From assembly GCA_905178155.1 (NCBI GenBank), contig CAJINV010000001.1:4754747-4818746 (forward strand): a stretch of DNA of 64,000 bases, given 5' to 3'. This DNA comes from Amoebophrya sp. A120. Taxonomy: Eukaryota > Protista > Dinoflagellata. This document shows, in pieces, positions 13,620 through 64,000 of this stretch. Position 1 is the first letter of the stretch, and each line of letters opens with the position of its first letter. Position numbers and translations under genes: made by a program. Below the pieces are notes generated by a model. The model was not told where the DNA came from and ran no database searches. It saw only the letters and a list, made by a program, of their open reading frames with translations.

Positions 13620-16600
13620 ATGGCCGAAACAGAGGAAAATACTGCTGTCGTCGAAGAACAAGCCCCAGCGCCTGCTGCGGAAACCGTAGAGGAGGCTGCT
13701 GCAGCACCCGCGGTCGAAGCGGCTGAGCCCGCGGCGGAAGAAACCACAGCTGCGGACGCTGCACCGGCCGCGGAAGTGGGCGAGGCAGAAGCTGAGGCAG
13801 AGGTCGCCCCCGCACCTGCGGAGGAGGCCGAGGCCGTTCCAGAAGCAGAAGCAGCCGTAGAAGAGGCCCCAACAGCGCCTGAAGAGGCGGCTGCCGCGGC
13901 GGAGGAAGCGCCAGCAGCCGAGGCAGCAGCGGTCGCAGAGGAACTGCCTCCTGCTGCTGAAGAAGCCACTGCTGCAGCTCCCGAGACCAAGGAGGAAGTT
14001 TCCGCTTCTCCGGCAGCGGATGAAAACGTAGAAGTTGAAGCTGCACCTGTTGCAGAAGCAGACATAGTTGAACCAGCGACAGAGGAGGCGCCAGTCGTCG
14101 AAGCCGCGGTTGAGGAGTCTACTGCTCCCGCTGCGGAAACAGAGGCTGCAGAGACTGCAGCTCCCGTAGAAGAGGGCGCTGCTGCCGAAGAACCGCAAGC
14201 TGCGGACGAACCGCCAGTTGCGGAAGAACCTGCCGTGGCTGCAGAGGAGCCCGCTGCCGTCGAAGAAGCGCCGGCTGCTGAAGAGAGCAGTCCCGCTGCA
14301 GCGGAAGAGAGCAGTCCCGCTGCCGCGGAAGAGAGTGCCACTCCTGCGGCTGAATCACCAGTAACAGAGACGCCAGCGGTTGCCGCTCCTGAAGAAGAGG
14401 TAGTAGCTCCGGCCGCGGAGGAACCAGCTGCGGAAGGCGACGCCGCTCCCGCAGAACCAGAAGTCGAAGCCACTGCTGCACCAGATGCGGAGGAAGGAAC
14501 CACTGCAGTTGCTGCGGAGGAGTCTCCCGCAGTAGAGGAAACAGCACCGAGTGCTGCTGCTGCTGCTGCTGACGAGGAGCCCGCTGCAACCGAGGAGCCT
14601 GCTGCAACCGTTGAAGAAGCGGCTGGTGAAGTTGTAGAGCCGGCTGCTGAAGCTGAAGCACAGCCAGCTGCTGGTGATGCTGCGGTGCAGGAGGAACAAA
14701 CCCCCGCCGCCCCGGAACAAGAGACCACTCCGGAACAAACCACGGCTCCGGATGAAACAACGCCCGTCGCTGCCGAGGAAACTCCTGCGCCTGCCGCTGC
14801 CGAAGAAATTACACCTGCAGCGGAAGAGGAACAAAAGCCGGCGCCTGCAGCGGACGAGGACGAAGACGCTGCGGAGGACAGCGAAGAGATTCCGGTCGTT
14901 CCGATGAACGCGGCTCTCGCGGGCTTTGCGCGGCGCAAACAGGAGGAGGAACGGTTAGAGGAGGAGGAGATTCCACTGAACCCTGCGCTGGCCGCCTTCG
15001 CGCGCCGACAAGCCGAACCAGGGTCCGAACAGGAGGAAAAAAGTGAGAACCAAGAGCAACCCAGTGAACAAGAAGGCTCTGCTCACTCCTCGGAGATGAT
15101 GCTGCCGCCGCCGGGCCCGATCAATCCAGCTTTAGCTTCGTTCGCCCGACGGAAGCAGGAGGAGGAACGGTTAGAGGACGAGCCGGTGATGATCAACCCC
15201 GCGTTGGTGAGTTTTTCGCAGCGCAAAACCGCCGGGGAGGAGGAAAGAATGAAGAAAGCGGAGGAGGAGATCGACGAACTGATGAAAGACCACATCAAAC
15301 CCTCGAACGACGAAACGTTGCAGGAGTCCCGCGAGGAGGCGCAGCGAACCGAGGCGGAGCTGACGCCGCCGCAGAAGACCCCCCCGAAGACGCCGCAGAC
15401 GCCCTTCTCCGGGTCCGACCGCCCGAAGTTATGGATTGCAAAAATGTCTGGGTCTGGAAAGAACTTGTAATGCTGCGTTGGGAATAATGAATGCGCTGTA
15501 ATGCACAGCCAAGCATGAAAAATGTCTGCGCTTGTTTGTGTTGCGTTTTTCGCATGACAGCACGACAGGCAAAAGGGTCTCTTCTTGGACACGCATCACA
15601 AACTTTTTGGTCATGCCAGACAAGCATGACAAATCTCGCAATCGTCCAGACCCCGACATATTTGCAATGCATAGAAGTCGCAGAAGAGTAACGCGACCAG
15701 CATGGGCAGCAGCGAGCGGAGTTTCAAAGCGAAGGAAAAGCTCCGGCTGATGGGCGGCACCATTCTGTATTCCGACATCGCGTCTTTGGTCGACGAGCGC
15801 TACAAATTCGCCACGCCGCGCACCCCGATCGGCGGCCCGCCCAAGGACGAGAATTTGGATCCCGAGATCGCGGACCGCGAGCGGAGGCGCGTGGAGGCGC
15901 ACCGGTTACGGAACATGGCGAAGGCCGCGGGGAGCCGGTTCAAGGCGGTGTCGAAGCTGACCTCCATGGGCGCAGCGCAGAGGAAGCCGAACATTCTGAG
16001 CATGCAGAACCACGGGAAAATCCGGGAGGCGGCGCTGGAGACGCAGGCGCACCTCGGCGTGTTGAACTCCGCGTTGTCGAACGAGGGCGGGGGCGTGCAG
16101 ATGATTTCCCAGATGCTGGAGGAGGAGCGGAGGAAAAATCGCGAAGCCGAAGCGTTGAACGACCCGGTCGTGCTGGCGCGCGCGGACTTGAGCAAGAAGA
16201 TCGCCACTTTATTGGAGGACGTGCAGTCGGAACTGACCTGCCGGGCCATCCGGTCGTTGAATGAGGCTTTGATCAAGGATCCGAAGGACAAAAAATCACT
16301 CTTCCGGAAAATTTTGATCGCCAAGGTGGGCAGTATCGAGAACATCATCAAAGCCTACGACAGCAACGGAAACGGCGACGTTTCCTACACCGAGTTCGAG
16401 GCGGCCACGAAAAAAACTTTATCTCAGCAGGAGATGGACACGTTTCTGCTGCTCGCCGGTGTCCCGCAACTGTCCCTGAAGCGCATTTTCGCCCTCTTCG
16501 ACGAGTCCGGCGACGGCACGATCGACACGATGGAACTGGTGGCGTTCAAGTCCACGGACATTGTGCAGGCCGAGTGGGTATCAAATGCAAAAATGTCTGG

Positions 16601-19021
16601 GTCTGGAAACTTGTGATGCTGAAATGTGCATGATGAAAACACTTCCGAATTCAGTCCAGCATGACAATTTCCCAAAGCGCTTTCTCATAGGCAATCTGCG
16701 TGAGAAGCTGCGTTTTTGCATGACAAAAGAGGCTGCGACTTTTGTTGGTTATGCAATACAGATTTCCCAGGAATGTAGAGCTAGCATTACAAGTTCCAAC
16801 CCTCCAGACCCAGACATTTTTGCAGTGCATAGTGGGAGAGCTTGTCCGTGATGCAGAAGTGGAAGCTCTACTGCAGCAAGACCGCCGGCTATGGAGAGAA
16901 AAAAGTTTGTCACAGTCACTACCTTGCAGGTTTTGCATTACAAATTTTTTCAGCATCACAGCTTTTCTTTGTATTGCATAAGCACTAGGGAAATCCCTCA
17001 TGAAGTTTGGCTGTGATGCATGTTTACGCATGACAGAAAATTTTGTATTGTAAAAATGCGCATGAGTGATCGTGACGAACTTTTTTTGTTTGATACCGGC
17101 TGGGAGAACCAGGGCGGGTTCGGGGAGCGCGCGGCGAAAAAGCGCGCGGACGTGGTCGACCGGGTGATGGCGCGGAACGCGGCCGAGGACCGCCGCGACG
17201 TCTCCAAAAAACGCATCCGCGAGCTGTTCCGTTTGGGCGAACGCAACACGTTCAAACTCGCCTCCTTCTTCCGCAAGGGCCTCAAGGGCAAGGAAATCGC
17301 GGAAGTCAAGCTGCTCGGTATAATTTTTGCTATTCATCGATTGTTTTTCGGATGTGAAAAATAGATTTGCACCTGTGGAGGTTGTATTTGGTTCGTCGAT
17401 TTAAGTATTGTAGTACTGGCATCGTTCATGTTCATGATAAGTAACAATGTTCCCCCGGCGCCGTTCAATAGGTGCCCTCTGAACGACCACGACGTCAAGT
17501 TGTGCTTTTGGTCGGGGTGTATCTGTATGTGCATGCTAATTAGTTTATTTGCAGAAACCAAAAGATTGCTGAAACCTATTCCTCTACAGACGCTCCGGAG
17601 GAATTGGCGTACCACAAGTTGCGGCACAAGAAGGATGATATGAACCGGCTGAAGGAGAACCAGAGGAAGGTCGAGACCGCCCTGAAGCACATATGGATTG
17701 CAAAAGTGTCTGGGTCTGGAAGGTTGGAACTTGTGATGCCAACTTTGGACTCTAAAAAATTCGGTATTGCATGACCAGCAAAAGGAGTCCGGTTTGTGCT
17801 ACGCGTGTAGGGCATTTGTCATGCGGAATAGGTACCAGGAAGGCCTCGAAAGATCTGCGATGCTAGGGCTTCCATGACAGACATTCTGTGTCATGCAAAA
17901 ACAGCATAACAAGTTTCGGATTCTTCCAGACCCAGACATTTTTACATTTGATAGCACATGACGGCCAACGACCGCCAGCTGGGTATTAGTCGCGAGGCGC
18001 TGCTGAAGGTGGTGCACGAGGAAGAGGAAGAGGAGGAGCAAAAGGAGGACGGCAAACCAATCGAGCAAAAGAGGCGGCCGCGGAAGGAACAGAAAACCGT
18101 GTCGATCGACGTCAAAATCGAGGGACTCAAGCAACGGTATAAATGAAAATGTTGACAGAGACAGACTGTGAGTGTAGTTCTGTGTAATGACGCTTTATGG
18201 TTTTGATTCAGACTGTGCCTGTGCCAAAGATAGTAAACGGAAATCTGTTTTTTACATTTCATGAGGAGGGATAAAACAAAAATTTCACTTTCGCAAAACG
18301 ATTCACTCAGGTACGCCGTGGATAACACGACGATGCTGCGGCAGGGGCGGCCCGGGCCAGAGGAGCTGCCGCACTTTTTTGAGCGCGACCGTCTGGTTTC
18401 CGAGAAGGAGATCGAGATTCGAGAGCTGGCCGCGGAGCACATATGCATTGCAAAAATGTCTGGGTCTGGAATGATGCAACTTGTGATGCTGCATTTCAGA
18501 ACACACGAAAATCTCTGATGCATAGGCAGCAAAAGCTGCTCACTTTCTGTCACCAAAATGGCGGATTTGTCATGCGGATTCGGCATTGCGGAAGCTTCTC
18601 GAAACCTGTGATGGTAGAGCTTCCATGCCAGAGCTTCTGTGTCATGCAGAAACAGCATGACTCTTCCAGACCCAGACATTTTTACATTTGATAGCACAAC
18701 ATGGCGATCAACGACGTGGACAAAATCCAGGTGGTCTTTGACTTTTACGACGAGGACGGCTCCGGGGAGATGGAGGCGGAGGAGTTTTTTCAATTACTAC
18801 ATGTCCTCACTGCGGGCGCGGAGATGACGGACAAGAAAAGGCAAGAATATTGGATGCAACTGGACGAAGACCGATCGGGTAGCGTCAACTTCGGCGAGTT
18901 CCTGCTCTGGTACTGGCGATCCTTCGGCGCGCCCACGGCCTCCAGCCTGCAGCACTCGAAGCGCATGATGCAAGCGGAGCGCGATCGCGTGGAAGCGGAA
19001 GCGAAGGCCGGCGCGGCTTAA
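13620..19021 (+). CDS. EF-hand calcium-binding protein with long Ala/Glu/Pro-rich N-terminus
   Basis: ATG 13620; frame restored across 5 introners and GT-AG introns 17318-17589 and 18137-18310. Four EF-hand loops: DSNGNGDVSYTEF, DESGDGTIDTMEL, DEDGSGEMEAEEF, DEDRSGSVNFGEF; TAA at 19019-19021. Confidence 0.85.
15430..15673. mobile_element. Introner family A (244 bp), TSD GAAGT
   Basis: TIR present; join reads RPK|SQKS; interior is the reverse complement of the 22317-22572 type. Confidence 0.95.
16579..16831. mobile_element. Introner family A (253 bp), TSD GTGGG
   Basis: TIR present; join reads AEW|ESLS. Confidence 0.95.
16890..17095. mobile_element. Introner, family C-like (206 bp), TSD CCGGC
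   Basis: TATGG..AAAAAAGTTTGTCACAGTCACT / AGTGATCGTGACGAACTTTTTTT..GATA; join reads KTAG|WENQ. Confidence 0.9.
17692..17953. mobile_element. Introner family A (262 bp), TSD GCACA
   Basis: TIR present; join reads LKH|MTAN. Confidence 0.95.
18442..18693. mobile_element. Introner family A (252 bp), TSD GCACA
   Basis: TIR present; join reads AEH|NMAI; interior very similar to 5574-5827. Confidence 0.95.
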
Positions 19022-19986: not shown

Positions 19987-22666
19987 ATGATTACTATTCG
20001 AGGTTCTCTGGCGGGGCGACCTGCCCCGCAGATGGTGACGACAACTGCGCTATGTCGTGGTCGATACGGTGCACCTCCAGTGGGCGACACGGTCGTGGTT
20101 CCTTGGTGTAGTGCTACACGAGAGGCAAGCGCGTGTGAAGGCCCATCACGCAGCCCCTCTCGCTCTTCAGCCTCCTCGTCCAGCAGCTCCCGTTGTTCTA
20201 GAAGTGCAGCGAACAAAGGCTTATATTCCAATGCCACCCCCACCCCCAGAACCGCGCTTGACGCCGACCGCAGCCTGCTGGCTGCACCTTCTGCGGCGGT
20301 ATCGAAGTTGTCGCGCCGCTACTACAAAAGTTTTTCGAAGCCCCCGCGCTCCACCACGCCACGATGGGTCAAGCGACTGCTCTTGCTCAGCGAGAAGCTA
20401 CGGCAGCCGAGCAGCACGAAGATTGACCACTTCTCGGACGATCCAGCGAAATCCGCCGGCGCGCAGAACCAAGAGAAGCACATCGACCGATTGAAGCAGG
20501 TGGATGTTTTCACGGAGGAGGAGTGCTACCCGTATTGAAGGGGAAAATGGGTTGGTGTCGACGTAGCGCAGCTGCAAAAACGATAGAGTTAGATATTATT
20601 CTTTTTACCATTTTGCAGTACGTACGTAGATCTCCTGGTGCTTCGGCGCTTCGAGGTTTAGGGTCGGAACGTTCTCAGCACTGCTGAAGCTTAAGAAGAA
20701 AGGGGCGTGCACGCCCTGGCCTTCAGTCTGCTCTGCCTTTTATCTTTTTGACGATCGCTTTACAAATCCTCCTTCTTTGCTCTGCCTCTTGTTCCCCGGG
20801 CCCAACTGGCACCAAGCAGTTTTTTTTCCCCTCGGTTTAGGCTTAGGTAGGCCGCCACCGCCGCCGGCACGGGATGGCTGTCGTCGCGACCGTCTCACGT
20901 TCGATCTTCGCCTTCTCCTGCTGCACAAGTTCGATCCGGAAAGGGTTTAGGTTAGGTTACAGGGTTTAGGATATCCACTTTTACCATTTTGCAGTACACT
21001 AATTACGAGACACAGGCTGCAGCGTAGACAACATCAACTCCAACTCATTTTTCTTCCTTGAACACCGACCCGATGACAGTAGCAAGCACGTCCGAACGAT
21101 ACATCCGTTGCTTCAGAGCCAGCGCACCGGGCTGCTGGCGTACAAAATGGGGATGATGAATCTGTACGATGAGTGGGGCCAGCGCCACGTGATTACCGTG
21201 GCGAAGTGCGACCGACTTCGGGTGGTACAGAGCAAGACCATCCAATCGCACGGGTATTCCGCGGTGCAAATTGGGCTGGGGTACAAACCGGTGGAAAGAC
21301 AACGCAAAACGGAGCTGGGGCAGTTCATGAAAGCGGGCGTGGGCCCAAAGGACGAGCTGCACGAGTTCCGCGTTTCGCCCGACTGCGTCCTCCCCGTGGG
21401 GCATGCACTTTCGGTGCGGCATTTCGTTCCCGGGCAGTGGTGTTTTTTGTCCGGCATAAGCCGCTCGCGTGGGTGGCAGGGCGTAATGCGGCGGTGGAAC
21501 TTTTCCGGGCAGATGCGCGCGAACCACGAGAAACAGCACCGTGCAGCGGGTTCGGTGGGGGCGCAGGGCGACGGAAAAATTTGGAAGGGAAAGAAAAAGG
21601 CAGGTCACATGGGACCGGACCCAAGGGTCATGAATGTCAAAATCTTCCGGATCGACGCAAGGTAAATTCTAAGATGAATACTTCTGCGGTTGAGTTTTTA
21701 CATATGAGTCTACAACTTTTCAAGACTAAGAGAACTACCAGTTATACTTTGCAAAACTCTACTTCGGTACCTGCACATCAGATCTTTAAGTAATCGCCGG
21801 CGTGATAAACGAATAAACAATGTCTTTAAACCACACAACATTCCCTTCAGGCGGAACTTATTGTTTCTGAAGGGCAACGCGCCTGGAAAGATTGGATCTG
21901 TGATATCAAAGTGAAAAAAGCCCCCACCCCATATCGGAAGTGGAAGACGCGCGAATTTGTGATGCTGTATTTGAGTACACAAATCGACTTGTATTGCTAG
22001 AAGGCCAACAGACGAAGCTGCGGCCTAAATTGCAGATAATCTGTCATGCTGTTTCCCGCTTCCAGCTGCCTCCTGTCATCCTGGAGCTGCAAGGCTTTCC
22101 CACGCTAGACAGCACTACAGTCCGCATCTTTTGCCTTCTAGCATCACAAAGCTGATTTGTAACCACAAATCTGCATCACAGATTTCCGTTTTGATATGGG
22201 GAGGGGGCATTTTTCATTGTAATATGTGATCAAGATTTCGGACGCGCGGGGAAAGACGAGATTCAAGAATGCGCACATCCGGTTGCCGTACCCGACTTTT
22301 GTGCCCCAGACCGGGATATGCATTGCAAATATGTCTGGGTCTGGAAGAATGCAAGATTTGTCATGCTTGTCTGGCATGCCTGAAGAGTTTGTGATGCGTG
22401 TCCAAGAAGAGACCCCGCTGCCTGTCATGCAAAACGCAGCTTGTCATGCGGAATGCGTAACACTAAGCAGCGCAAATATTTCTCATGCTTGGCTGTGCAT
22501 TACAGAGAATTTATTACTCACAACTCAGCAACATCACAAGTTTTCCAGAGCCAAACATTTTTGCATTTGATTCGGGATCGAATACCCTGTCGTGGTCGAC
22601 CAGCCAGTCAGGCAATACGATCCATTTCTCTTCCCGGATCGCCCGATCTACCAGCCTTGGGACTAG
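19987..22666 (+). CDS. MRPL3: Mitochondrial-type 50S ribosomal protein uL3
   Basis: uL3 motifs RTGLLAYKMGM, YSAVQIG, GISRSRGWQGVMRRWNF, HRAAGSVG, KGKKKAGHMG, RNLLFLKGNAPG; Ser/Arg-rich N-terminal extension. Introns 20532-~21079/21082 (acceptor uncertain), 21662-21850 and two introners; TAG at 22664-22666. Start codon uncertain. Confidence 0.88.
20533..21064. mobile_element. Degenerate TIR element filling uL3 intron 1
   Basis: Starts TATTGAAGGGGAAAATGGGTTGG with imperfect inverse CCAACTCATTTTTCTTCCTTGAA near 21040-21062; internal 19-bp direct repeat and TTTAGG units. Right end approximate. Confidence 0.45.
21904..22224. mobile_element. Introner family B (321 bp), TSD TGTGA
   Basis: TATCAAAGTGAAAAAAGCCCCCACCCCATATC / GATATGGGGAGGGGGCATTTTTCATTGTAATA; join reads IGSV|IKISD in conserved uL3 sequence. 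Confidence 0.95.
22317..22572. mobile_element. Introner family A (256 bp), TSD CGGGA; right TIR slightly decayed (ends GATT)
   Basis: Join reads PQTG|IEYP. Confidence 0.9.
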
Positions 22667-23005
22667 AAATGATGGAAGCGTGGTGCTGAGCCTTCATCAA
22701 GCACGACTTCCTTGTGCATCAAACTGGAAAGGAGTTTACTGATGTAGCGAGGTGATCATGCGGAACAGAGCACAAAAATGCGAACTCGAACGCCTACGCA
22801 GTTGCGGTTGTGCATCTGTCTTTCATTTTCGTCTGGTGGAGCAGTTGACGGTAAAGGCATCGAATCGCGGCACAGCAAGTGTCCTTGCGAGGTCCCAATA
22901 CTCACTGCCTAGTGCAAATCATCTGCAAAAAGTTCCTGTTCGATATCCTCGGCAGTAAGTAGCTGCCGCTTCTTGTGAGTGGTTCTGTTTTCATTTCCCT
23001 CTGGT

Positions 23006-23220
23006 TGCCAGCTCTTTCAGCTGGTCCGGTGAGAGAAGCTTTTACTGGGCGTCAGCTCTTTCAGCTGGTCCGGGCTCCTGGTGCTGCAATCACCGTTAGG
23101 AGCATAAGGACTAAGAGCATAAGTCTTCGCTGCACTGTGCAGCTTCACCAGACGCGCACCATCAGAAGTGCGGAACTGGCGGGAGTGCTCGTGCTGCACC
23201 ATCAGAAGTGCGGAACTTGC
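23006..23220. repeat. Cluster of short direct duplications
   Basis: CAGCTCTTT(T)CAGCTGGTCCGG twice, GAGCATAAG twice, GCACCATCAGAAGTGCGGAACT twice (23156 and 23196). Confidence 0.7.
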
Positions 23221-23424: not shown

Positions 23425-24643
23425 ATGACAGGAAGGGAGGCGAAGTACGTCGACAGGAGCCCGGAAGTCCTGGGCCGGCTGCTTCCGCGAAGCAAGGTTC
23501 TTTGTTTGACAAGAAACTTGGGTTATTTCCTCTTCGCTGCGACCTCTGTTTTCGCCGCCGCGGCTGCCGTGGAGGATGATGTTGATGCTAGTAGCGTCAC
23601 CACCGTTCCAAAGAGCACGAACATCGTCTACGATGCCAGCAGCGCGGTCACGCGGGAACACCGGTGGGGAGCACAAGGCCGCAGCGGGCTCACCGTCTGG
23701 ATGACGGGCCTTTCTGGGTCGGGAAAAAGCACCATTTCGCGAACGGTCGAGAAGATGCTCTTTGAGAAAGGTACGGCACAGCTATACCTTGCTTGGAAGG
23801 AGAACAGCTGTGCGTTAAATATCGTTTCTGGTTATAATCTGGATAGTTTTGCATTTGCAATTATAAAAGTCGGAAAACAAGTTGAACACAGGATGAACCT
23901 GATGCTGATAAAGTGAATAAAACATGTTGGGCAGATGTCCTTGCCTACCGACTGGACGGTGATAACCTGCGTTTCGGGCTGAATTCCGATTTGGGGTTTT
24001 CCGAAGCGGACCGGACGGAGAACGTCCGGCGGGTCTCTATCAAATGCAAATATGCCTTGGTCTGGAAAGGCTGAACCTGTATTGCGTGTCGCGTATTCGT
24101 AAAAAATCTGTATTGCATAAGCAGCAAAAGCAACACATTTTCGCCATGCAAGTTCGCAGTTTGTAGCGCATGCTGCGCATGAGAAAGGGTTTGAAAAATT
24201 TTTCATTTTTCACGGCATTTAAAGGCGTGAGCAATCATGACCATTCAGCATTAACTCAGACATATTTGCATTTGATAGTCTCCGAAGTTGCGCAAATTCT
24301 CGCGGACGCGGGCGCGGTCGTGTTGTGCGCGCTGATCGCGCCGAACAAGGAAGACCGTGCGAGAGTACGCAAGAGCCACGAGCGGACCGGCATTCCCTTT
24401 CTGGAGGTGTTCGTGAACGCCCCGCTGCAGGAAGCAGAGAGGCGGGATCCGAAGGGCTTGTACAAAAAGGCGCGCGCCGGCATTATCCCGGGGTTCACCG
24501 GCGTGTCCGCACCGTATGACGTACCCGAGGCTCCGGATACGGAATTGAGAACGGATCTGGAGACAGTCGAGGAGAGCGCGGCGAAGTTGCTTGACGCAAT
24601 TCTGGAGAAAGTGAAGCTAGAACCGAAAAAGGACGAGCTGTAG
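23425..24643 (+). CDS. cysC: Adenylyl-sulfate (APS) kinase with N-terminal hydrophobic segment and C-terminal KDEL
   Basis: [14 protein letters not shown]-loop, [38 protein letters not shown]; GT-AG intron 23771-23934 plus introner 24038-24277. Start codon uncertain. Confidence 0.93.
24038..24277. mobile_element. Introner family A, degenerate (240 bp), TSD GTCTC
   Basis: Outer TATCAAATGCAAATATG / CATATTTGCATTTGATA is perfect, inner TIR decayed; join reads NVRRVS|EVAQ (conserved APS kinase sequence). Confidence 0.92.
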
Positions 24644-26316: not shown

Positions 26317-29300
26317 ATGGCGCGTCGTCCGAGTTCGAACTTGATTCAGCCGCAAGGGGCCAATGCGGCGATTAGGCAGCAGCCCCCCGCTTCCGGCGTG
26401 CACCTGCCGCCACCGTACCGGCCGCGCCGCAGCATGCGGGATCTCAGCCCCTCTATCATGCACCGGTATTTAATATTAGTAGATGTTGAGCGTGAGCCTG
26501 ATAGTAAGTGTTCAAGGGATCATACTAGTAGTAGTTGTCTTGCAGTACTATCGCAGAACAAGCTGCAGTGTAGTTGTTGATGTGAATGCATGGGAATAAT
26601 TTTTTCGCCCGGACGAAATAAACGAGTGAAGTTCTTCTAGCTGAATGAAACTACGACCACAGGTACATGTACTCTTTCCAGTGTTTCATGGCACACCTTC
26701 GGCGGGTGCGGGACAATTTCTGGAAGTCCTGCTACCAGAAAATCTGCGCCATCGTGTATTTCTTCTCTTTCGGCTGGTGCTACAGCACCGACACGAGCTT
26801 TTCTACGAAATCTGCCGATCAAGACCGGAACAAAAGCGAGGTCAACAACACTGCGTCCAACGTCGCACCTGCTTCTCCTCCCGCTCCAACCGGCAAGAAT
26901 GTTAAAGCCGCTCGCGATAATTCCTGCGGCGCGCCGGACCAGAAAGAAGCCGGGGAAGAAGGTGAAGATGACGAACAGAGTGGCTATGTTCAAGATATTA
27001 ATGGTGCACCAGCACCGAGGCCGCAGGATCACGCCGAGATGAAACAGGCTACTTCGAAGATGATTCCGGTCAATTTTGCGGAGGATGTACTACACCTGCG
27101 GTACTACAATGACGTCGTGCAAGATTCAATTACTGGAGGTGTGCAAGACGACGGCCTGGTCGTTCTTGAGGACGGTCAGACGGTTGTTGTCCGAGCGGAG
27201 CCGGAGGACCAACCAGTAGAAATGGATCAAGATGAAATACGCAGCGTGCAACCGCTCATTACTAGTATGATGTCTTCCGTGACCACATCGACCCTCGGGA
27301 GGAAGACAGAAGAGGTATTATACTTGACTTTTGCATGTGCTTTCTTGTTCTGTCGTGTTGTAAGTATCTGTATGAAATGGCCCCCACTGAAGACAGATGG
27401 GGGAAAGATTCGGCTGAGTTCTACAGTGGTCAACTTGTGTACGTACTTACTGCTCTCGGGAGGCTCAACGAAATCGAAATATTATGCGACTTCTTCAAAA
27501 TGGCAAAAATAACAGGAGGACGAAGAGAATGATCGCGAAAATAAAGCTCTGGAAGAGTTGCGGCTTATGCGCGAGGAAATGGAAAGAATTCGGCAGCAAA
27601 GGGACATGCTTCTGCAGGAGAAATTTGCGCAAGAAGCGAGGGCGGTTGAAGGAACTGTATTTGTTTTTAAACTGAAAGTAGGCTACTGCTCTTCAGTGCG
27701 AAGCCCTTGCATTATACACGACCTAATATGAATGTCCAGGAGTTTTGAATTTGTGAATGAAGTTTTGACACAACTTCCCCCTGTTATTTTGTACACAATA
27801 TTCACTTTCTCAGGTTGAGGTCCAACCTTCGGCGTCTGGTCGTTCAGCAGAACCCGGTAGCCGGAATAAAGCATCGGCAAAGGAGGTGAATGATGAATCT
27901 GCGAAAGAGGCGCAGTCCACCCTCGTGTCAGGCAATAGCACCAAGGCCGCGTCTCGGAACGTATGGATTGCAAAAATGTCCGGGTCTGGAAGAATGAAAC
28001 GTGTGATGCTATTTTTGGAATCTAAAAAAATCTGTATTGCATGAGGAGCAAGAGGCGTCCAGTTTTTGCTCCGCGGAGAAGGCATTTGTCATGCGGGATA
28101 GGCATCAAGATACCTGCAAAAAATTTGTGATGCTGGGGCATACATCGTAGACATCACGGGTCATGCAAAATGTGCATGACAAACCTTGCAATCTTCCAGA
28201 CCCAGACATTTTTGCATTTGATAGAACGGGTCGGAAGACAACTGGTGCCCCGTTTCGCACAAGAAAAATAAGAAGAAACGCTCCTCGACGACGCAGGCCA
28301 ACACGTCGGAAATAAAGGGAGTCAATAGTGGGGGCCCCACCAGTACCACGACAACCGCTATTCAACATCGACAGAAAGCTGATGTGAAAGAGCAGGCAGA
28401 ACCTCCACGCGTCGACGAACGAAAACAGTCCCGAGATAGGATCGCCACCGCTTCGACAGTCGACTTTGCGATGACGGGACTGTCTAGTCTCGTTTCGAAA
28501 ATGTCCGGGATCCAGGAGAATGAATTACACGATGAAGACGGCGTCGATCAGCTTGAGACTGCAGCACCTACCTTGACGTCCACTTCATTTCAGGAGAGAA
28601 GGAAGACGAGTAGTTTCTCGCAAGTAGATCACGGGGGAACAATAATCGAAACTAGAACTACTGCGCCGAAAAATCGCGCTGAGAACAAGACGAAGATTGT
28701 CGTCGACCAGGTTTCTGTAGAAGTTCAGGATCCGATCCTGACCCCGCTTCACGTCGTGCCTTTGCCGCCGTATCCCGCGCCCCCTGGCCCGTGGGACGCT
28801 GACGCCGACCAAGAGGTGTTGTGCGCTGGCGAGGAGCATCAACCAGCAGGGCCACCACCTATGCTTTTTCCGCCGCCCAAAGCCTCTTTCGACGAGAGCT
28901 ACGTGATCCCGCGCCTGGATTCCGACGCGGGTGTCGACGAGCACTGCTCTCATCTGCAGCTGCTTTCGCAGTCGACCACCGGAGGTGGGGACCTGCTCCA
29001 CGTGGAGCATCAGAGGAAGAAGAGTGCAACGGATGTTTTCTCGCCGACCAGCACCACGGACCGGGACGCAGACTGCTCGATCGATCGGCCCGCCGCAGCC
29101 AGCACCCCCTCCCCGGTCGCGTCCACGCAGCGGATGGATGCTACACCGTGCGTCTTGCCGCTCGACGGCGTCGAAGACGAGGGAAGTCAGTCGCTAGGTG
29201 TTGAACAATCCTCGGCAGTTGTGCGGAGCGCAGCCACCGCGAAACTTTCTCCTGCGCCGACTTGTTCCGTTGGTCAGCAGGTTAACAGCGCGCTTGCCCC

Positions 29301-36594: not shown

Positions 36595-38165
36595 TAGGAT
36601 TTTGGAGCTTCTCTCGTTCAGATGGAAACGATGATGTCATGCTGCTTTGGATCACGCCAGAGTGAGATCTGAGGCCTGATTTGTGCTAGATTGAATGTTT
36701 TGTGGAGGTCCTACCGTGATGATGTTGCTGTGTCCCTAACTGAGTCTAGAAATAAGCTATCACCTCCGCAAGCACGATAGAAGTAGAAAGCCGGCGGTGC
36801 GTGCTGCTTCACCCAAGCGTGACAGCCACCCGCTCGTAGCTCTATTTCTTGAAAACTGTGCTGGCGTAATAGTGGCCACGACGCAGAATTTGCTGCTAAA
36901 CTATGTTTCTCGTCATCTTATATTCACATATTCCTGAATGATAAATTTGTTCTTGGAATTATGTCCTTGAGAAAGAGCAATATTTCTTCTGGGTCACTAC
37001 ATCTATAAGGAACACAGTACTCTAGATTAGAAAGCGGCGCTCAACATCAAACTGGGGACAATGGATAGTGGGTCCTTGCCTCCATGATATCATCGGCACG
37101 GCATCATGATCTCTCTACTTACGTACGGCTACGGCACCATGCGCTGTGCGATCTGAACCTGAAGCAGATCTTTACCCCATATCGAGCCGATGAAGTGGAT
37201 TCCAAGATACTAGATTCACCCCCAAGATTGGTCCTGCTTTACTTGGAAAGGTATTCATCTCGATTTGGAGAAGTAGCAAACGGAGACAACTTCGAACAAA
37301 TTTTGCATGGGGACCATCAGATGTTGAAAGAGCATCTGTTCAGGTTTCGAAGCATGAAACGCAACCATAGACAGCACATGAATAATATCAGCATGTGCTA
37401 GTAGTACTTGCAACTGCAGGTGCCTCTCTCCCCACAGGTGGACACCGGCAAATGCTTGGCAAATTTGAAGCCTACTGCGAATGTAAGATTGTTGAACTTA
37501 CACTCGACAGTCACCGACGTGCAAACGCTCTGGTAGGAATCTTGTAGTCGATGTGCAGCACGAGTTGCTACTTTCATTTTGGGATATGAAACAAACCGGG
37601 AAAATTCGCATGTTGCAACATTTTCATTGTAAAAAAAAACCTGTGCTCAGTTCTACTGTCAGTTTCTTCCCTAGAAACGGAGCACAAACTGTTTCCATGA
37701 TAGTTACACCCTGATTCTGTGATCTCCGACTTCCCCCGTTGTAAAAAAGAAATTTTATCTCGTACATTTAGTTACCTCCCCGGCAACATGGTTTGATGTA
37801 AACCGCCTTGTCATCAAGGCGCTCAGGCTTGCAATCCACGTTGGTTCCGGATGAAGTCCACGCGACGATCGTAGCTCTGATTCCTCGAGCAAAAAAATCC
37901 ACTCTGCCAACAAAACTGCAACTTAAACAAAGATAAATTCGTTTGCAACAAAAGTAAAAAATAATGACACCAGATTTCAATAGGCCTAAATAAACTAGAT
38001 ATGGAATCAGTATCGTCAATGCAAATTTGATGCAAAACCAAAAATGCTGACCATCACGCAAAAAACGCCGAAAAGAAATCGCAAACGCTTTTCTCTAAAA
38101 CGACGTGTGTCCTTGGGTGAACAAATCACCTGCTTATGCATGCTTTATTTTTCGTTGGCTCTTTA

Positions 38166-45055: not shown

Positions 45056-46087
45056 CTTGATGATCTGTAAGCTTAGTCTTGTCGATGTCGTCCGATGTTG
45101 TAGACGGTGCAACAAAGTGTGTCTTTCAGAAGTACTTATAAACAAGAAGTTATGCTGATGCTGGATGCGTTTCTTTCGTATATGTCTCTCTAGTTAGAGT
45201 TCTGTTCTCTGTTGCTTTCCTCGCCGTCTTGTTGCGTTGCAGCAGTTAGCCGAGGATCTTTGCAACTTTGATTATCGGCGCGGACGATGGCTCGTTGAGT
45301 TTGGCGAATGCTTTAATCTCTTTTGCTATTCGTGCTCGTCTAGCTGTAGTCGTTCCTTTTGTCAATCTGACGATATGTTGTTTCGTGATCGTGCATCTTC
45401 AAGATAGTTCGTTCATCCTCCTTCTCGTGGTGAGGTGTTTCAATATGGTTTTTCGTGGTTTCTTCGTTCTCTGGTATCGTTTCATGTACAGGCTAATCGT
45501 ACGTGATCATAATTGAGTCAATGTATCAATCTTCTGCGTCTGCGTTTTGTTTCCCAGCTCCACAACCCTACCCCACCCGAAGACCCCAATAAATCTGTCG
45601 TCTCTTTTCGTATTTTTCCTGCTTTGAATAGTGTATGCGAAGATGTTTTCCTTTTGATTTGTTTATTCTGGGTGTGTGACTCCTCCTGTAGTTTACCCCC
45701 GTCAAGTAAGCCTAAGGACCTTTTTCTCTTTTTTGTTCTTTTTGTTTTAATAGCTGCCCTAAACGCTGCATCCAATCAATACCAACCCTAGGAAAGAAAC
45801 ACATTTTATTTCGACCACGATCCACCCTCACCCATTTTTTGAGCGCGACCTTTACAGCGACAACCCTGAGTCTTATCAGGTTCTTACAGCAGTAAAATTA
45901 ATCATCCTCGGACAACAATACCTGCCGAAGGTGGAACCGAGGCGCAAACTAACTAAAAATTAGATTTGTCACTGAGCACGGCCATCACAGGAGCCGCGCT
46001 GCAATAACTTCCTTCCCCTTCGCCCCTGCTTCAACATACTCTGCCCTGTCTGCTCCTTTCTCCCGGTTCTTGCACTTACACCACCCC

Positions 46088-55000: not shown

Positions 55001-58000
55001 TCCTATTTCACGTGCGACCTGTCCAACAGCGAGAACGAAGAGGAGAAACAAAAAGCCGGGGCCAGTAGTACGAAAAAGGCCGCTTCCGCTACATCGCCGG
55101 CAGAAGGGGCCGTGGTCAAAAGTCCTGGGATTTTGAAAAAGACACCAGAAAGTAAGGCGGAAAAGGACTGCTCAAAAACATCAGACGAGAGTTCTTCTTC
55201 TGCGGAAGACGAGTCTGCACCATCCTCAGCGGCGAATGTTGACAAGTCCGCTTCTGCCACAGTCGAGATCGTAGTTCCGGAAGTAGAACCAATACAGCCA
55301 GCGACGACAACTGCACCAGCTCCGCAAGGAGCGATTTCCAGCGGAGCTACTACAACAGTGGCTGCTGCTCCACCAGTTGTTCTTGCGAATACCGCTCAGG
55401 AGCTCGAAAACGACCCCGCAACCGCCCCTCTGACGACATCCTCAGATGTGACCACGGTTGCGGGCGACGACCTGGCAATTACGCAAACCGTCGCTGCCAA
55501 CGACGGAGTTGTTGTACTTCCGACGACGTCTTCCACAGTAGTGCCGACGTCGACCACAACGACCACTACTATTCGCGTCCCGCAGTACCAACAGGCTGGA
55601 CCTACGAGGAACAATGCGTCCGAGGACAACGAATTCAACCAACTCTCTTCTTCTTCCGCCTCCCGGGACCTGCTGCGCGAAGAGAACGACATGGAGGAAA
55701 ACGACCTGCGCGCTGTGGATGAAGATCACGAGGATAATATCAACGAAGTACAGCCAGCCCATGTTGGTTCCCTTGGCATCATCAACACCTCCACGTCGAG
55801 TTTGTCTTTGTCGCACGCAACCAGTGCGAGCGGATCGAGCACCCCGACGATGTCTACTACAAATCACGGGGGAAGTAACCTGAACCATCTCACGATTCCT
55901 CTTCCCTCTCCACCGATGATGCCGCGGATTAATACGGGGGCGGAAGCGCCCACGGATGAGAACGAGGATGACATCAGCAGGGTCATGGACAGTCGAATTG
56001 TCGACCGGGGAGACCAACTCTCCTTCCATTTGACGACCTCCTCGCTTTCCGATTCCAGCAGTTCCAGCAGTGACAACGAGATTGAGGTGCTCACTAACAA
56101 CAGTCCCAGCCACCAGCGCCTCACCCTGAGGCGGAACGCGCTGCGGCCCAGCCACCCGGAGGCCGCAGACGACGTGGGGGGCGTGGTCGATTTGTCTATG
56201 GACCACACGTATCAACCGAATAGGAACAACAACAGTAACGCTGTTGCAAGAACAGCGGGACCTACTTCGTCCGGAACCATCACCCCAGCACCACCATCGC
56301 GAATCGTACAACCTTTTCGCTACGATCACATGCTGGAGTACCCGCCGTTCCGGTACAGCATTGGGATCGGGCGCAACATGGAACAACAGCAGCGGCAGCG
56401 AACGCCCAGTCCGCAAGAAGACGTCGACTCTGCAAACGAAACGCCACGCACGATTTACACACCCGCCAACGCAGGAGCTTCGGCGAGCCAGTTTATTCCT
56501 CCCATCCCGTCCGCCTGGAGCACTAGCGGGGGACAAAGTGTGCCCATGACGCCGACCAACACGCCTGCGGTTCTCAATTCGCCGCAGCAGCACATGCCAG
56601 GCGCGGCTCCGCCGACCGGGGAGTTGTTTGCCGTGGCCTCGCAGGCTGGCCCAGCGAGCGAGACTGCGATTTTGAATGCGGTGAGTAATCATGCAGCAGC
56701 TTCGTTTGCCGGTGGAGTGGCGGAAATGAACAATGCAGTACCTCCGCAGCAGCTGAACACCAATAATGTTGCGCCGGCACATCCGGACTACAGCAATTTT
56801 GACTTCGATACTGGTCACCGCGTTCGGCGCATGTACAGTACGGCGATGCAGGTGGGCTACCAGCACGAGAGAGCGCAGTCCCGCAGCGTCCCGCCGCCGG
56901 AGGTGCGGAATGTGGTGCAGAACACCTACAGTCTGTACGACGAGATTATCATGCAAGAAGAAGAGGACGTGGAATCTGAGGAGCAAGCGCTGCTGCACCG
57001 CGAGCGGCGGAGAATTCGCGGATCCAGTTCCTCGTCTGCGGCGAATCAACAGCAGAACAACAACAGTACTTCTGCAACTGCTGGAAGTGGTAATATCAAC
57101 ATCTCTGCTTCTCCGGTCACCTCGACTGCGGCGGCCGGCACGAACTGGTGGAGGGCCCGGGGCCAGGCGATTGGTAGTTCATCGTCCACTGGCAATAATA
57201 ATTCGCGGAACGACAATTCCAGTACAAACCACCACCGGCGGGCGCACGAACTCCAGGCCGGCGCGGTGGAGCACCAGCTCGGAGTAGGCCAAGATCATGT
57301 CTTCGACCTCTCGCAGCAAACCCTGTCCGCGTCGGGTGGTGGCTACGTGGCGGCGCCGGACACATCGGCGGTGGAGTCAGTACACTTGACTTCCAGCTCC
57401 AGCGACCAGGACAGCGATGCCGGCGGGTCGTCGCAGCAGCTGCGCCGCATCGAGGCCAGTAACAACGTCCACTTCGCGTCGGACGATACGAGTATTCCGC
57501 CCCAGGGAAACACACAGCTGCAGCAGTCGGGGAGCGATTCTGCTGGAGTTGTTGGGGGAAATCAAGAGGCTGACGATGCGCCAACAACCATAATTTCCTC
57601 TCCCGGCCAGCAAACTCGAGCAAGTGTTGCTGGTGGCGTGAACAGAAGCGTGAACACAATTCGTGCGGCCACGGACCAGGTCGCGTCGCGCCTTTTCCCG
57701 TCCTGGAACACAAACGTGACCAGTGCGACAAGCGGAGCGCGAACGTCCACCTCTGCGAGTACCAGTCTCGCGTTGGCCGCGGCCAGTCGCAGCTATGTCC
57801 TGGACACGCCGGAAGTGAACGTGAACAACGACGAGGCTCTGGGCCGGCCAACACCGTTTGGCTTGAATCCGTACACGAGACAGAACAACTACCCCACGAA
57901 TCGGGCGAGGCGAATTCTCGACTGGGATACCTTTTCGCAAACTGCCAGCAACGAAGCAAACGCGAATGGTGGAACTGCCGCGGCTGCGCGTGCGGCTTTT

Positions 58001-60048
58001 CAGCAAAGGAACGGAATAAATCCCTTCATGGGCGGCGGCGGGCTGGCACCTCCGAGAGGGGCAAATGCAAGCAATGGAACAACCGCATCTGGGCCACCCA
58101 CTGGGATGAATGCACCTCCCGGTGGAATAAATGCGAACAACATCACCGCTGGAAGAATCACACCCGCCTCGTTCGGTTTGTTCGGCTCGCACCGGCGTCA
58201 GCCGCGGCCGCCGGCGATTGATCACAGGTCTCACGCGGTCACGAGTCAGGAGTACGTGCGTCAAATGGAGTCGGGCGCGTTTGCGGACATCTTTCCGTTC
58301 TTAACCGACGGGTCGTACACAACATCAAGCAGCAGTTCCGGAGGAAACAATTCTGCGTATGGTAATTCTACGTCCTCTTCGAGCAACAGTTCTTCTTCGT
58401 CTTCCAGTAGTTCTTCTTCGTCGAGCAGTCACGACCAGGAGAGCAACGAAAATGAAGACAATTCCGCCGTGTTCAGTCTCCTCGACCAAGCTGCGCGGAC
58501 GGCGACCACACGAGCGGGTTCGTCTAGTTCCTGGTCGAATTCAGGGTCCTCTGACGTCGTCGCAATGGTCAATAAATCCACGGGCTTGGAGCAGGATCCA
58601 ACAACTAATACTAGTCGCAGGAGCAAGACAACCACTGCTCCTGCCCCACCAAAGCTGAATTCGGGGCAGCGCATCCGGCACTTTCACGCAAGCCAGATTT
58701 TGGACCGGCTGGCCTACAGCGGCTACCGACCCGCACTGCAAGACCGGGGACAGTTGAAGAAGCGGAAGGAGTGGCAGGCGGCGCTGCGGCCCGGCACGCA
58801 CGTGGACGCCATGGACACCGAGCAGGCCGCCTGGTACGAGTCCTACATCGTGAGTATCAACGAGGACGCGTGTCTGGTGCACTTTCTGGGGTGGAACACC
58901 ACGTGGCGGCGGCACGTGTTTTTGAAGTCCGCGGACGCGTTGAGGCTACAGCCGCGCAACTGGGTCGTCCCGGAGTGGCGGCGCAAGCTCAAGCGCTTAG
59001 ATAGCCTGGATGTCAAAATTCCGCTCGCACAGACCTTAGGAAGCAAACTGGAGATGCACGCATTTTTACCCATTTTGCAGCAGATGAGTTGTACTAGTAG
59101 TTCATCCGCGGGACAAGAAGGACCACACGGAGCTGTATCCTCGTCCTCTACGCAACCAGCAGAGCAGCAACAGACGACTTCGGAGGGGAACAACCTCCAG
59201 AGTAATATCGCCGCTACAGAACAGACCTTAGGATCCGCCCTGCCGACAGTGGCGGAAAATAGTACATCAGCCTCGACTGATGTAAATGGAGCCGCGGCAG
59301 GTTCTCTATTGTCCAGCAGTAGTCCCAGAGGACATCAACATCAGCAGTCCACCACAACAAATACAGCCAATCCGGTGGGACGCACCCCGACTGGCTTGCC
59401 ACAGGGAGCGGTGTTAGAAAAGGGGGATTGTATTCATCTGCAGGCCGGCATCGAGATTTGTAGCTTTGAGGAAGAAAATCTAGTGGAATTGCGGCCGCGA
59501 TGGAAGGTGGCGCAGATCATCCAGCTCCGCGACCGATATGCGCAGGTGCGGGTTCTCGGGAATCCGTTCCCGCGGGAAAGGACGGCAGACCTCGCCGCTG
59601 CAACCTTCGGGGCGATTTTGGATGGAGGGTATCTTATGTTGCTTCACTTGCTTCAACTATGCATTTTTTTATATTTGGGACGACTACGGGCAGCCCAGTA
59701 ACTCTTTTGTCTTACGGAGAAGCTGCAAGGATGGGTGCATCTTCCTTTTCGTTGATAGTACTAGGCTGTTCCCTCTGAAAATTCTCCTACGTAAGTTCAC
59801 GATTAAGTACTTCAGATGTTTTCTTTATCGCTCATCAAAAACCACGAAACAGGTACACGCTCGCCTTCTGGGTCGACCTCTACGGTAATTCCGTGCAGCC
59901 GTTCGGAACACACACCATAAAGCCGTCGACGCGTCGGCCGGTGTGGAGCTTTCTGGAGGCGCCGAATCCGCCGCACATAAGCGCCGACGACCGTTGGGAG
60001 GTCACGGAAGAGGAAACCCCGTTGCGCCCGCACATGTTTGCGGCCTAA
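46088..60048 (+). CDS. Giant (~4,600 aa) mostly disordered protein with F-box-like, LRR-like and C-terminal Tudor/Agenet-like segments
   Basis: 13.5-kb ORF; FFSDFLSLPDILRLEQVSRCL (F-box-like), FPNLETLRL / FANLKVFCL (LRR-like), WQAALRPGTHVDAMD...WYESYIV...LVHFLGW (Tudor-like). GT-AG intron 59629-59852 joins last exon YTLAFWVDLYGNSVQPFGTHT...TAA. Confidence 0.72.
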
Positions 60049-61215
60049 TAGAGACAGATACTTAGCTTTTATGGTGGCTTTCGATTTGATATTCATCAGG
60101 CTTCGCAGCGAAGCAAATTTTGAATTTTTGACTTTTATTTATCTTCGTCTTTACAGTTCGATTTCGATTCGTAAGAGCTTTGATTTCGTGGAGTGTAGAA
60201 GTAAAAGCTCTTTGGATCATCGTTTTTCCGCAGACTACAGAGGAGTATATTGTATGATTTTTCTTGACCGTCAGTTCGTTTTTTTTTTTCGGAAGGTAAA
60301 CAGAGTTGCATAATCAGACTATGAACGACTGATGAGATTCAATTTCAAATATATTTTCGTTCCCTGACGGAGCATCAATTCGAGGCCAATAACTACTACC
60401 CTTTTTTTTTCACCCCCTCGCCAAAAGCATTTCTTTCGAAATATCTTTATCTGCCCCCACAGCATATCGAATCCACCCGATGCGTTTGACAACCTAAAGT
60501 TTTATTTTTTGATCTCTCTCTAACTCTATCACCAGCCACTATCAGCTTCAGCACGAACAAGACGAACACGAAGACAAAGTTTGATGGAAGCTGGTTTCTG
60601 ATGTTCCTAAAACACCTCCTTCGTACCTCCACCACATCGCTCAACATCCGTCCTGGAAGATCTCACCTTAGTAACAGACCGCGACGGAAAAGTATGAAGA
60701 TCCGCTACTAGATCGTCACTGTCGTTTGTTGTGCTCGTACGCAGTCCCTGCGAAACGGTGTGGAACCAAGGGTCACGATGTTGTACGCAACGGTATTGCA
60801 TTACATAATCTCACAGTCCGCTTCACATGCACCAGGAATTTTGTTTGCATACTGCCATTTAATACAACTTGAAATTTGCTTCCGTGATTAGAAATCATCG
60901 AAAAAGTCGAACTGTTTCTCAAGAAAAGTAGATCGTGGAGATGAAGGTGACTACATCAAGTTTCTTAGTTCCCCGCCGAGTCCTACGATTCGATGAAAAG
61001 AGTTTTATATATATAATTTTATGCTTTTTCTTCGTCAAGTGTCGTTTGCTACCAGTTGAATATGAGAAGTTTCTCATTCTTTCTTGTGACTTTTAAGACA
61101 AAGGACTTGATGCTGTCACGAGCAGAATCGGGAATGAGAAAATGTGCCTGCCGCTGCTTCTTCGTCAAAGAAATTCGTTTCATTCACAAACAGCACCTAA
61201 ATTGTCATGCATAAG

Positions 61216-64000
61216 GTTGTATCAAATGCAAAAATGTCTGGGTCTGGAAGAATGCAGGGCTTGTCATGCACAGCTAGCATGGCTCCCAAGTCTGTCATGC
61301 GCGCCACACAAAAGCCACATTTCTCTGTCATGCAGAAACGCAGTTTCTCATGCAGATAGGCAACACTCTAGCAGCTCCAGAACTTGCCATGCTTGGCTGT
61401 CAATGAAGGCGTCCACATGATTCGCCGAACAGCATCACAAGTTTCCAGACCCAGACATATTTGCATTCCATACGTTGTCTCGATCGGCGTGGCCGATCTC
61501 AACGCGTTTGACACCTGGGCAGACGTTATCAACTGTAAAAATGTCTGGGTCTGCAAGATTCTGAAACTTGTCATGCACGTTTTGCATAAGCCATGACGTC
61601 TGTGATGCATACCCTAGCAATACAGATTTTTTGAGGGCTTCTTGATGCCTATTCCGCATGGCAAATGCCTTCTCAGCGTAGCAAAAATTGCGCTCCCTTT
61701 GGTACTCATGCAATGCAGATGTTTTTGGAATCCAAACGCAGCATCACAAGTTGCATTCTATCTTCCAGACCCAGACATTTTTACATTTGATAGACGTCGG
61801 GCTCTCTCCGGTCACGTATTTGAAGCATGTCAAATCCTACTGGCGAATGGTCGTGCGCGGCATGGGCCTGGTGTCCGTCATCGATCGCGTTTTGCAGCAG
61901 AAAGCGGAACAGGTGGACCACACAGGACTAGTATTAATCGCGCGAAAAATAGACCAGGAGCAGGAGCTGGGGAAAACTTCAGCCTTGTGTGCTGCTCAGT
62001 GCGAAGACGAAAAGGAAGATCCTGCTTCCACCACCGGCGGACAAAAAAAGCTGTCTTGTGCAACAAGTAGTAGCGAGGTGAACTACACTTGTAATAAACA
62101 CACGACTTCTGGTCCTGCTGAGGCAGAGAACTACTGCTCCAGGCTGCACTCGTCCCTTTGGCAGTCGGCGTCGGCACCGTTTTTGTCAGATTGGAAGCAG
62201 AAGTCTGCTGGAGTTCTTGTCTGCCCACAACGGGCTCGGTTGAAGTGTTGTAATCGTCGAGACGACACCAGGGTCGACGAACCGTCTACGAAGAGTAATG
62301 CACCCAGCATTTTTGCCAGTACTGCTCACGGAAGCGGCAGTAATCTAGCGGCTTGTCCAAAACACGAGGATGATGCGCCACCAACAACACGGGCGCAGCA
62401 CCAGGATCCTTTACTTCTCGGAGGAGGATTCTTGTCGGCTGCGACGAGCGATACTGGCGCGCCCTTCAACTCCGGCTCTAGTCTTCGCAAGAGGCACGGT
62501 AGTAGAGCTACTGCCTTAACAAGTACAGCAGCTTCTTCAAAAATAACCAAGCAAGCGAGATACAGTGAGGCCGTGAAGATGGTCGATCATAGTCCAAGTA
62601 CAACAATGCTGTCATCGTTGTCTCCGATGAACTATCCGATGAAGCGTGCGCAGAGCTGTCCCAGCAGCCTTCACGAGCTTCCCAGGCAGTTTCGCAGAAG
62701 CAAACGAGAGGAGCTTCCCGCCGGCCCCAAGCTGATCCACAAAGGGACGCCAGAGGCAAAAATCCCGTGGAATTTCCAGGAGTTTCGGCTCAACGACTGG
62801 ACCTTCCAGGAGCGGTACCAGGAGGTGTTGCAGCGCTATCAGAATCTCTGGACCCTGGCGACAAAGAACTTCGATTTATTTGCGATGTCGTTTCAGTCTG
62901 GGCTAGGTTTTTTCGGAGAAGAATCTTCCGCGAAGAATTTTTCAGAAGAAGAAGAAGAACCGGGTCAACGTCATCAAGGCCAAACCAGTAAACCTGTTGC
63001 CGCTGCTGGTTCCGAATCCGAACAGCGCTTTTTCGACGGGCTGATAAAGAGTGTCTACGATATCTCGATGAAACCCCACGGTCATGACTTTGTCCAGCAG
63101 TCGCAAAGGACCGTCGTAGATAAAATGAATCTTGTTCGGAACGAAAACGATTTTCCTGCCCGAGGCCGAGACGACACGACCCGGGTCGCGGGTTTTGTGA
63201 ATGAAATTGAGCTTCATTGGGGAAGCGTGCAGGCAGACTTTGCGTTCTTTGTGCAGGACGAGATGAGGTCACAGATGGAAAGTCTAGTCCCTGATTACAT
63301 CACGGACAACCCGGACGAGGACGAGATTGACGCTGTGGAAGACGAGACTGGGGGATTCGACAGTACGAGGACGTCATACGACAACTCTGACCACCTGCAT
63401 GCGAAGGATCTTCCGCGTCATGCTGAACCTACAGCTTCTGCGCAAGCGCATCTACGCACTGGTAGCCTGTATGATGACCTCGAGGAGGACGAGAAGGATT
63501 TCGGAAAGCTCTCACAGTCCCGCAAGGGAATTTTGCGATCCAAACTGAGCTTGATGGCCAAGAAGTTACCGTTCAAAAAAGGTGCTTCATCTTCTTCGGC
63601 GCAACTGGGAGCTACAGGTTACCAGCATGATGATCTCGTCGCACAAGCAACTACAGGCTCTGGTCCCGGGGGAAACAAGAAATCAACCACGAGCACTAGA
63701 AAAATTTCTTCTAGCGACACGACCATTTTTTCCGAAGATCATGCTACGGCCGCCCAGAATCAGGCACAGGCTCGAAATAAAGTACAGCACATCAATCTTC
63801 ATCCGCAAGAGCTGAAGCAGCTGCGGCAGCGGTTTGAAGAGAAAATCCTCGGTTTCTTGAATCCGCGGTTTCAAGCGGAATTGCAGCGGTGGAGCAGCTT
63901 GTTCAACTTGGAGCACACGCGGATCGTCGAGGAGGAATCCGCTGCTTACAAGCAAAACGGATGGACCTACTTCTTGATCGAATACGGCGACTATGAGTCC
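61216..64000 (+). CDS. Hypothetical protein, 3' truncated; start not identified
   Basis: Manual translation gives an open + frame from 61474 across introner 61527-61792 to the window end (VVSIGVAD...YLKHVKSYWRMVV...WTYFLIEYGDYES); missing from the ORF track because it has no stop. Confidence 0.7.
61220..61472. mobile_element. Introner family A (253 bp), imperfect TSD GGTTG/CGTTG
   Basis: Clear GTCTGGGTCTGG TIRs; downstream exon VVSIGVADLNAFDTW is open. Confidence 0.9.
61527..61792. mobile_element. Introner family A (266 bp), TSD GACGT, opposite orientation to the 17692/27962 copies
   Basis: TIR present; join reads TWAD|VGLSP. Confidence 0.95.

Follow-up and report, generated by a model that had tools for sequence, protein, structure and literature searches.

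Introner elements of Amoebophrya sp. A120 have been described by Farhat et al. 2021 (PMC7789003) as sequences with a mean length of about 240 nucleotides (nt), bounded by an inverted repeat of TAT, 7 nt and AAA and by direct repeats of 3-5 nt. In the same work their ends are reported as non-canonical, a hairpin is proposed to join the exons, U1 small nuclear RNA (snRNA) went undetected, the A120 spliceosome is near-complete, and a cognate autonomous transposase was not found in A120. Gozashti et al. 2025 (PMC12130899) report 58 A120 families, including DNA elements of 256-261 base pairs (bp) with terminal inverted repeats (TIRs). The present analysis concerns a 64,000-nt stretch of A120 DNA (contig CAJINV010000001.1, positions 4,754,747 to 4,818,746; hereafter the window), in which repeat search and alignment identify 14 copies of a single family, termed family A. 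Family A belongs to the TAT-ended introner elements already published for this organism.

The family-A copies of the window are 240-266 nt long, start with TAT and finish with ATA (the copy at 22317 is the only one that finishes with ATT), and carry TIRs of about 28-30 nt. In agreement with the published A120 introners, the inverted repeat consists of TAT, 7 looser bases and at least 3 A (end tables, 157 copies), and the direct repeat falls within the 3-5 nt range, a perfect 5-nt duplication being present in 13 of the 14 window copies and in 127 of 143 copies elsewhere. Short, TIR-bounded, flanked by a target duplication of fixed length, dispersed in many copies and inserted in either orientation both in the window and in another assembly, the family shows the features of miniature inverted-repeat transposable elements (MITEs).

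Orientation and excision of family-A copies

The orientation of the copies was scored by cutting 35 nt off each end and aligning the remaining interior both ways, with shuffled interiors as control (mean score -42, standard deviation 11, maximum -7). The copy at 15430-15673 aligns as the reverse complement of that at 22317-22572 with a score of 216, vs 4 in the same orientation, and with an identity of 78% over the interior and 81% over the whole element. Similarly, the copy at 61527-61792 is the reverse of those at 7570, 17692 and 27962, with scores of 203, 176 and 208 vs 19, 20 and 4, and with identities of 72-77% for the interior and 76-79% for the whole. Both relationships had been proposed in an earlier note made from the letters of this DNA, whose coordinates proved exact upon repeat search and alignment; a third reversed copy, at 16579-16831, had not been named in it. 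In total, 11 copies of the window face forward and three (15430, 16579 and 61527) are reversed.

Evidence for excision comes from joints read in the contigs of four runs of one study, three of which belong to one sample and the fourth to a second sample. One contig, about 4.4 kb long and present in all three runs of the first sample, covers an EF-hand protein gene (13608..19021, + strand) that holds two reversed and two forward family-A copies, one other TIR element and two GT-AG introns, and it joins the exons across all five TIR elements and both GT-AG introns. That the ordinary GT-AG introns are also gone from the contig speaks for messenger RNA (mRNA). The reversed copies removed from this + transcript are 15430..15673 (- strand, duplication GAAGT, joint 15424>15674, skip 249 nt) and 16579..16831 (- strand, duplication GTGGG, joint 16572>16831, skip 258 nt), and the forward ones are 17692..17953 (+ strand, duplication GCACA, joint 17685>17953, skip 267 nt) and 18442..18693 (+ strand, duplication GCACA, joint 18435>18693, skip 257 nt). 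The fifth element, at 16890..17095 (listed without strand), is a TAT...ATA element with a different TIR and the duplication CCGGC (joint 16884>17096, skip 211 nt). Each TIR skip exceeds its element by 5 nt, and each of the four family-A copies is removed exactly, together with one of its 5-nt duplications. Both orientations are excised exactly, as shown by two reversed and two forward copies. The run of the second sample shows six of the seven EF-hand joints, 15424>15674 not being seen there, and contigs of this sample resume exactly after two other forward copies, 24038 (at 24278) and 27962 (at 28224, from contig base 157). As expected in the earlier note, reverse-complement homology holds and reversed copies, two of them, are spliced in the presumed-RNA contigs. 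The elements are repeated and are removed from RNA with non-canonical ends, as are introners in the sense of Farhat et al., the contigs being RNA by guess and from one study.

The joined forms could alternatively be DNA alleles without the elements, either empty sites or the result of excision at the DNA level, and not products of RNA splicing. This would agree with the fact that the joint-bearing runs are not recorded as RNA, and with the 246 joint rows that a DNA-like run has beyond the matches listed. However, the same contig is also without two GT-AG introns, the contigs of the DNA-like run pass from exons into TIRs, and such introns are scored as spliced in published RNA sequencing work (PMC7789003), which leaves the DNA-allele explanation hardly credible.

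Orientation was also followed outside the window. A scan of 13 of 64 parts for the TIR pattern returned 159 loci, among the matches listed all from one other assembly. The 156 unique candidates yielded 143 copies, all of them clearly oriented, after 13 had been dropped for poor ends or a length over 300 nt; the set analysed for the end and motif tables comprised 157 copies. Gene strand was assigned by a codon model, which places 19 of the 21 window elements on +, and likewise all 13 of those that reach a margin of at least 6, and 47 of the 127 kept copies with a perfect duplication passed a strand margin of 6. The orientations of the perfect-duplication copies split 37:28, 26:21 and 16:15 at margins of 4, 6 and 8, respectively, the 26:21 split among the 47 strand-called copies corresponding to p = 0.56. 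Neighbours less than 400 nt apart, for which no strand call is needed, face the same way in 9 cases and opposite ways in 8. Furthermore, both orientations occur in six of nine subfamilies (at least 3 members each), and pairs that are 92-95% identical face opposite ways. Collectively, the orientation of family A relative to genes looks random. In 26 of the 47 strand-called copies, and in most of those in the window, the duplication begins at codon position 3, and the target sites show no preference that would match. This bias may in part be an artefact of the frame model.

Splice signals and the likely mechanism of removal

A G(T/C/A)..AG cut is available at no equivalent position in any of the 21 TIR elements of the window. 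In the other assembly, a canonical cut can be placed in 7 of 47 copies in sense and in 4 of 47 in antisense; random coding sites would give 10% and 8%, respectively, and the sense count is about that of chance. The pattern of canonical-site introners, in which a GT/GC/GA donor and an AG acceptor are supplied by the TIR or the duplication, is not that of family A, and the strand-called copies of the other assembly show no clear preference in their target sites. The possibility that ATA plus a following G serves as an AG acceptor, prompted by the right-hand duplication starting with G in 11 of 14 window copies, was rejected: only 13 of 47 copies elsewhere show this G, and the splicing of the CCGGC-flanked element also contradicts it. 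At the left-hand side, G is the first letter of the duplication in 12 of 14 window copies and in only 13 of 47 elsewhere.

According to the earlier note, excision needs no strand-specific interior signal, such as a branch point or a polypyrimidine tract, and the symmetric TIRs suffice. Exact excision in both orientations means that a signal confined to one strand of the interior is not required, and this part of the statement stands; that branch point and polypyrimidine tract are dispensable is, as stated, unsupported. These two signals usually sit in the last 30 nt of an intron. In family A the last 30 nt are the TIR, and because they read with the same consensus in either orientation, branch point and pyrimidine run could both be carried by the TIR itself. 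It holds a T-run. Of the 157 copies, 114 when read forwards and 93 when read backwards have a YTRAY match in their last 45 nt, and CAGAC lies within the end region of 156 in either reading direction. Nor does the sufficiency of the TIRs follow from orientation independence, because a symmetric interior signal, namely TGTNATGC, is possible. Taking this into account, any required signal must be symmetric, and is to be sought either in the 30-nt TIR or in a two-stranded interior motif.

All 157 copies carry TGTNATGC, with at most 1 mismatch, on each of their strands, at about 7 per copy vs 0.8 in shuffled sequence. It also occurs 4-7 times in six of the seven other TAT elements of the window, and is rare in five conventional introns and in exon sequence. 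Such a distribution would suit an interior that matters symmetrically, in which the two-stranded motif recruits a factor or builds a fold that marks the intron, the TIRs alone not being enough. Subterminal repeats of this kind are, however, typical transposase-binding sites, and the motif could have this function with no role in splicing needed; moreover, the 976-nt element at 33956, whose splicing is putative, contains only 2 motifs. On balance, a requirement for the symmetric interior appears quite improbable.

We favour the view that family A is a two-way, transposon-like intron family of about 250 bases, whose exact removal is likely due to the splicing machinery reading the mirror-image 30-base ends and not the normal splice letters. 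As the anatomy suggests, the process would begin with an insertion of the DNA-transposon type at a nearly random site, with a 5-nt duplication and no direction preference. Whichever way round the element has landed, the transcript would then, as observed, open it with TAT-N7-AAA and close it with TTT-N7-ATA. The element would next be removed with one duplication, as seen in two reversed and two forward copies, restoring the mRNA as it was before insertion, with no GT/GC/GA..AG cut available. For this step, a modified U2-type spliceosome may position the two cuts at a constant spacing from the TIR, any branch point and the T-run would be taken from inside the TIR, and end-to-end pairing would help to bring the exons together.

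In the predicted fold, some 24 of the first 28 nt are base-paired with the opposite end in both orientations, and the fold energies of the two orientations are -101.0 vs -100.1 kcal/mol (54 copies, p = 0.53). The same pairing would also serve a removal that is independent of the spliceosome or relies on a separate machine, with cleavage at the foot of the terminal hairpin setting free either a circle or a linear piece, as in Euglena, and with no branch point involved. The missing splice dinucleotide, the missing target-site preference and the fact that unrelated TIR families have only TAT-N7-AAA in common speak for such a removal, as does the Euglena precedent itself (PMC12501133, PMC11282704). 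It is nevertheless unlikely, given that wobble bias is not found and covariation between the ends is weak, that the A120 spliceosome is nearly complete (PMC7789003), and that, according to a review (PMC11282704), similar introns of the tunicate Fritillaria are handled by the animal's own spliceosome. Possible, though in our opinion doubtful, is a fully direction-blind code, read by a dedicated machine that can do without U1, a branch point or any splice dinucleotide, takes its measure from the TAT-N7-AAA ends and excises any such TIR-bounded insert together with one 5-nt duplication. If this were true, RNA-level silencing would apply to every such transposon insertion, wherever it sits and whichever way it faces.

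Several observations weigh against the favoured reading, that of a spliceosome guided by the TIRs. The four joint-bearing runs were taken as RNA by guess and consist of contigs only, from one study; in the two recorded RNA read runs the EF-hand gene is uncovered, one having 91 partly aligned reads on TIR ends only and the other none. The 33 G.U wobbles vs 44 A.C mismatches counted on the gene strand (64 copies, p = 0.25) do not indicate that RNA pairing is under selection. At TIR positions 4, 5, 7 and 15 the two ends agree no better than shuffles, and at positions 10 and 14, where they agree above shuffles, shared descent could explain it. The window leans 11:3 towards one orientation (p = 0.057), and strand calls outside the window depend on a codon model from whose training the host genes were not always excluded. 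Finally, the forward copy at 61220..61472 (+ strand, imperfect duplication GGTTG/CGTTG) misfits the simple cut: the annotated protein P0011 implies a shifted one (61208-61472), at a CAT repeat roughly 12 nt upstream of the TIR, and not the element plus 5 nt. This may be an annotation quirk or a re-set cut.

Host genes and other features of the window

The earlier note had placed all host genes on the + strand, in agreement with Pfam and orthologue support for the EF-hand, uL3 and APS kinase genes and with P0011 at 61.5 kb; elsewhere, the strand follows from open frames and the codon model. Around the copies, Pfam detects EF-hand, ribosomal L3 and, at 24038, APS-kinase domains on +; of the 12 exon pieces, 7 matched no Pfam family. 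After joining, the EF-hand gene has a stop-to-stop frame open over 1241 codons, which is colinear with its Amoebophrya A25 orthologue across 16579, 17692 and 18442. Around 15430 the A25 and A120 proteins are too diverged for colinearity to be judged; the exon between 15430 and 16579 has as its sole match an A25 protein, 58% identical. The copies at 17692 and 18442, which share this gene and the identical duplication GCACA, belong to different subfamilies.

The copy at 22317..22572 (+ strand, duplication CGGGA) lies in the 3' part of the mitochondrial ribosomal protein uL3 gene (21069..22667, end approximate; + strand; Pfam and homologues). Among the joints listed, no RNA joint was seen across it. 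Its removal restores a C-terminus bearing a PVVV..DPFL.P.RP motif, which 5 of the 7 uL3 homologues aligned also have (of 9 matches, 7 were used and two partial ones left out). The copy at 24038..24277 (+ strand, duplication GTCTC) sits in the APS kinase gene with the Pfam domain on both sides. For those at 27962..28223 (+ strand, duplication GAACG) and 7570..7824 (+ strand, duplication GAGTC), the strand is backed by long + frames once the element is removed, namely 1803 open codons downstream of the contig entry at 28224 for the former and 847 + 678 open codons for the latter. The reversed copy at 61527..61792 (- strand, duplication GACGT) interrupts a + strand gene (61473..64000) annotated as the partial A120 protein P0011, whose model runs exactly across it with the element and one duplication taken out. 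Searched with HMMER, the frame after 61527 retrieved the annotated protein of the window itself and, beyond this, a single distant relative, and a word-based homologue search for the 61.8-kb gene gave nothing. The remaining forward copies, at 1330..1583, 2291..2544, 3033..3287 and 5574..5827 (all + strand), were found by alignment and have their strand from open frames and the codon model alone, the margin at 5574 being only 1.2.

Besides family A, the window holds seven TAT...ATA elements that have TIRs of other types and duplications of 5 nt, at 349-669, 1942-2227, 2639-2867, 16890-17095, 21904-22224, 32967-33288 and 33956-34931. All of them roughly share TAT-N7-AAA, and most carry TGTNATGC in the interior. 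An inverted repeat at 38162-39741, with 62-nt arms 1456 nt apart, is a candidate for a larger TIR element of another kind. Other repeated sequence is present at 20654-21000 and 23030-23210, with raised depth and variant letters in the DNA-like run, and telomere-like words of the TTAGGG type occur near 20940-20970. The 13.7-kb unbroken + frame at 45953-59701 (4582 codons) contains no family-A copy in a window that is otherwise dense in elements.

Comparison with known introns of transposon origin

Introns that arise from both orientations of an element have been described before. In Polarella glacialis, TIR introners of classes 1, 2, 3, 6, 7, 8 and 10 make introns either way (Roy et al., bioRxiv 10.1101/2020.10.14.339549), and the same authors cite this two-way behaviour for Aureococcus anophagefferens, with recruitment of near-canonical sites (second-hand for Aureococcus). 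Like family A, these are DNA-transposon introns with TIRs and target duplications that occur in either orientation. The Polarella classes differ in having GT/GC/GA 5' sites and 3' sites drawn from the TIR or the duplication, and in being biased, all of them, to one orientation; family A, unlike the Polarella and Aureococcus introners, offers no canonical cut and shows neither a target-site constraint nor a significant orientation bias.

The nonconventional introns of Euglena (PMC12501133; PMC11282704) are similar in their non-canonical borders, terminal pairing, duplication-like repeats and proposed MITE origin, and synthetic 50-bp introns with only the terminal motifs, spacers and pairing are spliced there (PMC12501133). 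They differ in their directional code, with 3-nt and 5-6-nt spacers, a purine at the acceptor exon and CAG/CTG motifs. According to the review PMC11282704 they leave as circles. The Euglena-type code, with CAG/CTG and these spacers, is not found in family A, whose ends are TAT(C/G).. and ..ATA. The MITE-derived introns of Fritillaria borealis (PMC11282704; PMC13326754) likewise share the TIR and target-duplication origin and the non-GT-AG ends, and differ in their preference for AG-AC and AG-AT ends and in the conserved 5' end of U1.

In the available literature no statement was found on introner orientation in Amoebophrya. Among the matches listed, the passages of Farhat et al. that contain the word "orientation" concern gene orientation. 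For PMC12130899, the word has no match in 12 of the 14 supplement files. The method of that study demanded matches in the same orientation, and that of Gozashti 2022 (PMC9860276) permitted opposite ones. Introner catalogues that require same-orientation matches will divide families such as this one in two. The near-identical copies that face opposite ways provide ready-made pairs for branch-point mapping, and the behaviour of family A narrows down how Amoebophrya removes most of its introns with neither GT-AG ends nor a detected U1. Compared with the systems above, both the element class and two-way introners are already published, and the detail added here is an orientation-blind excision that proceeds without a canonical cut.

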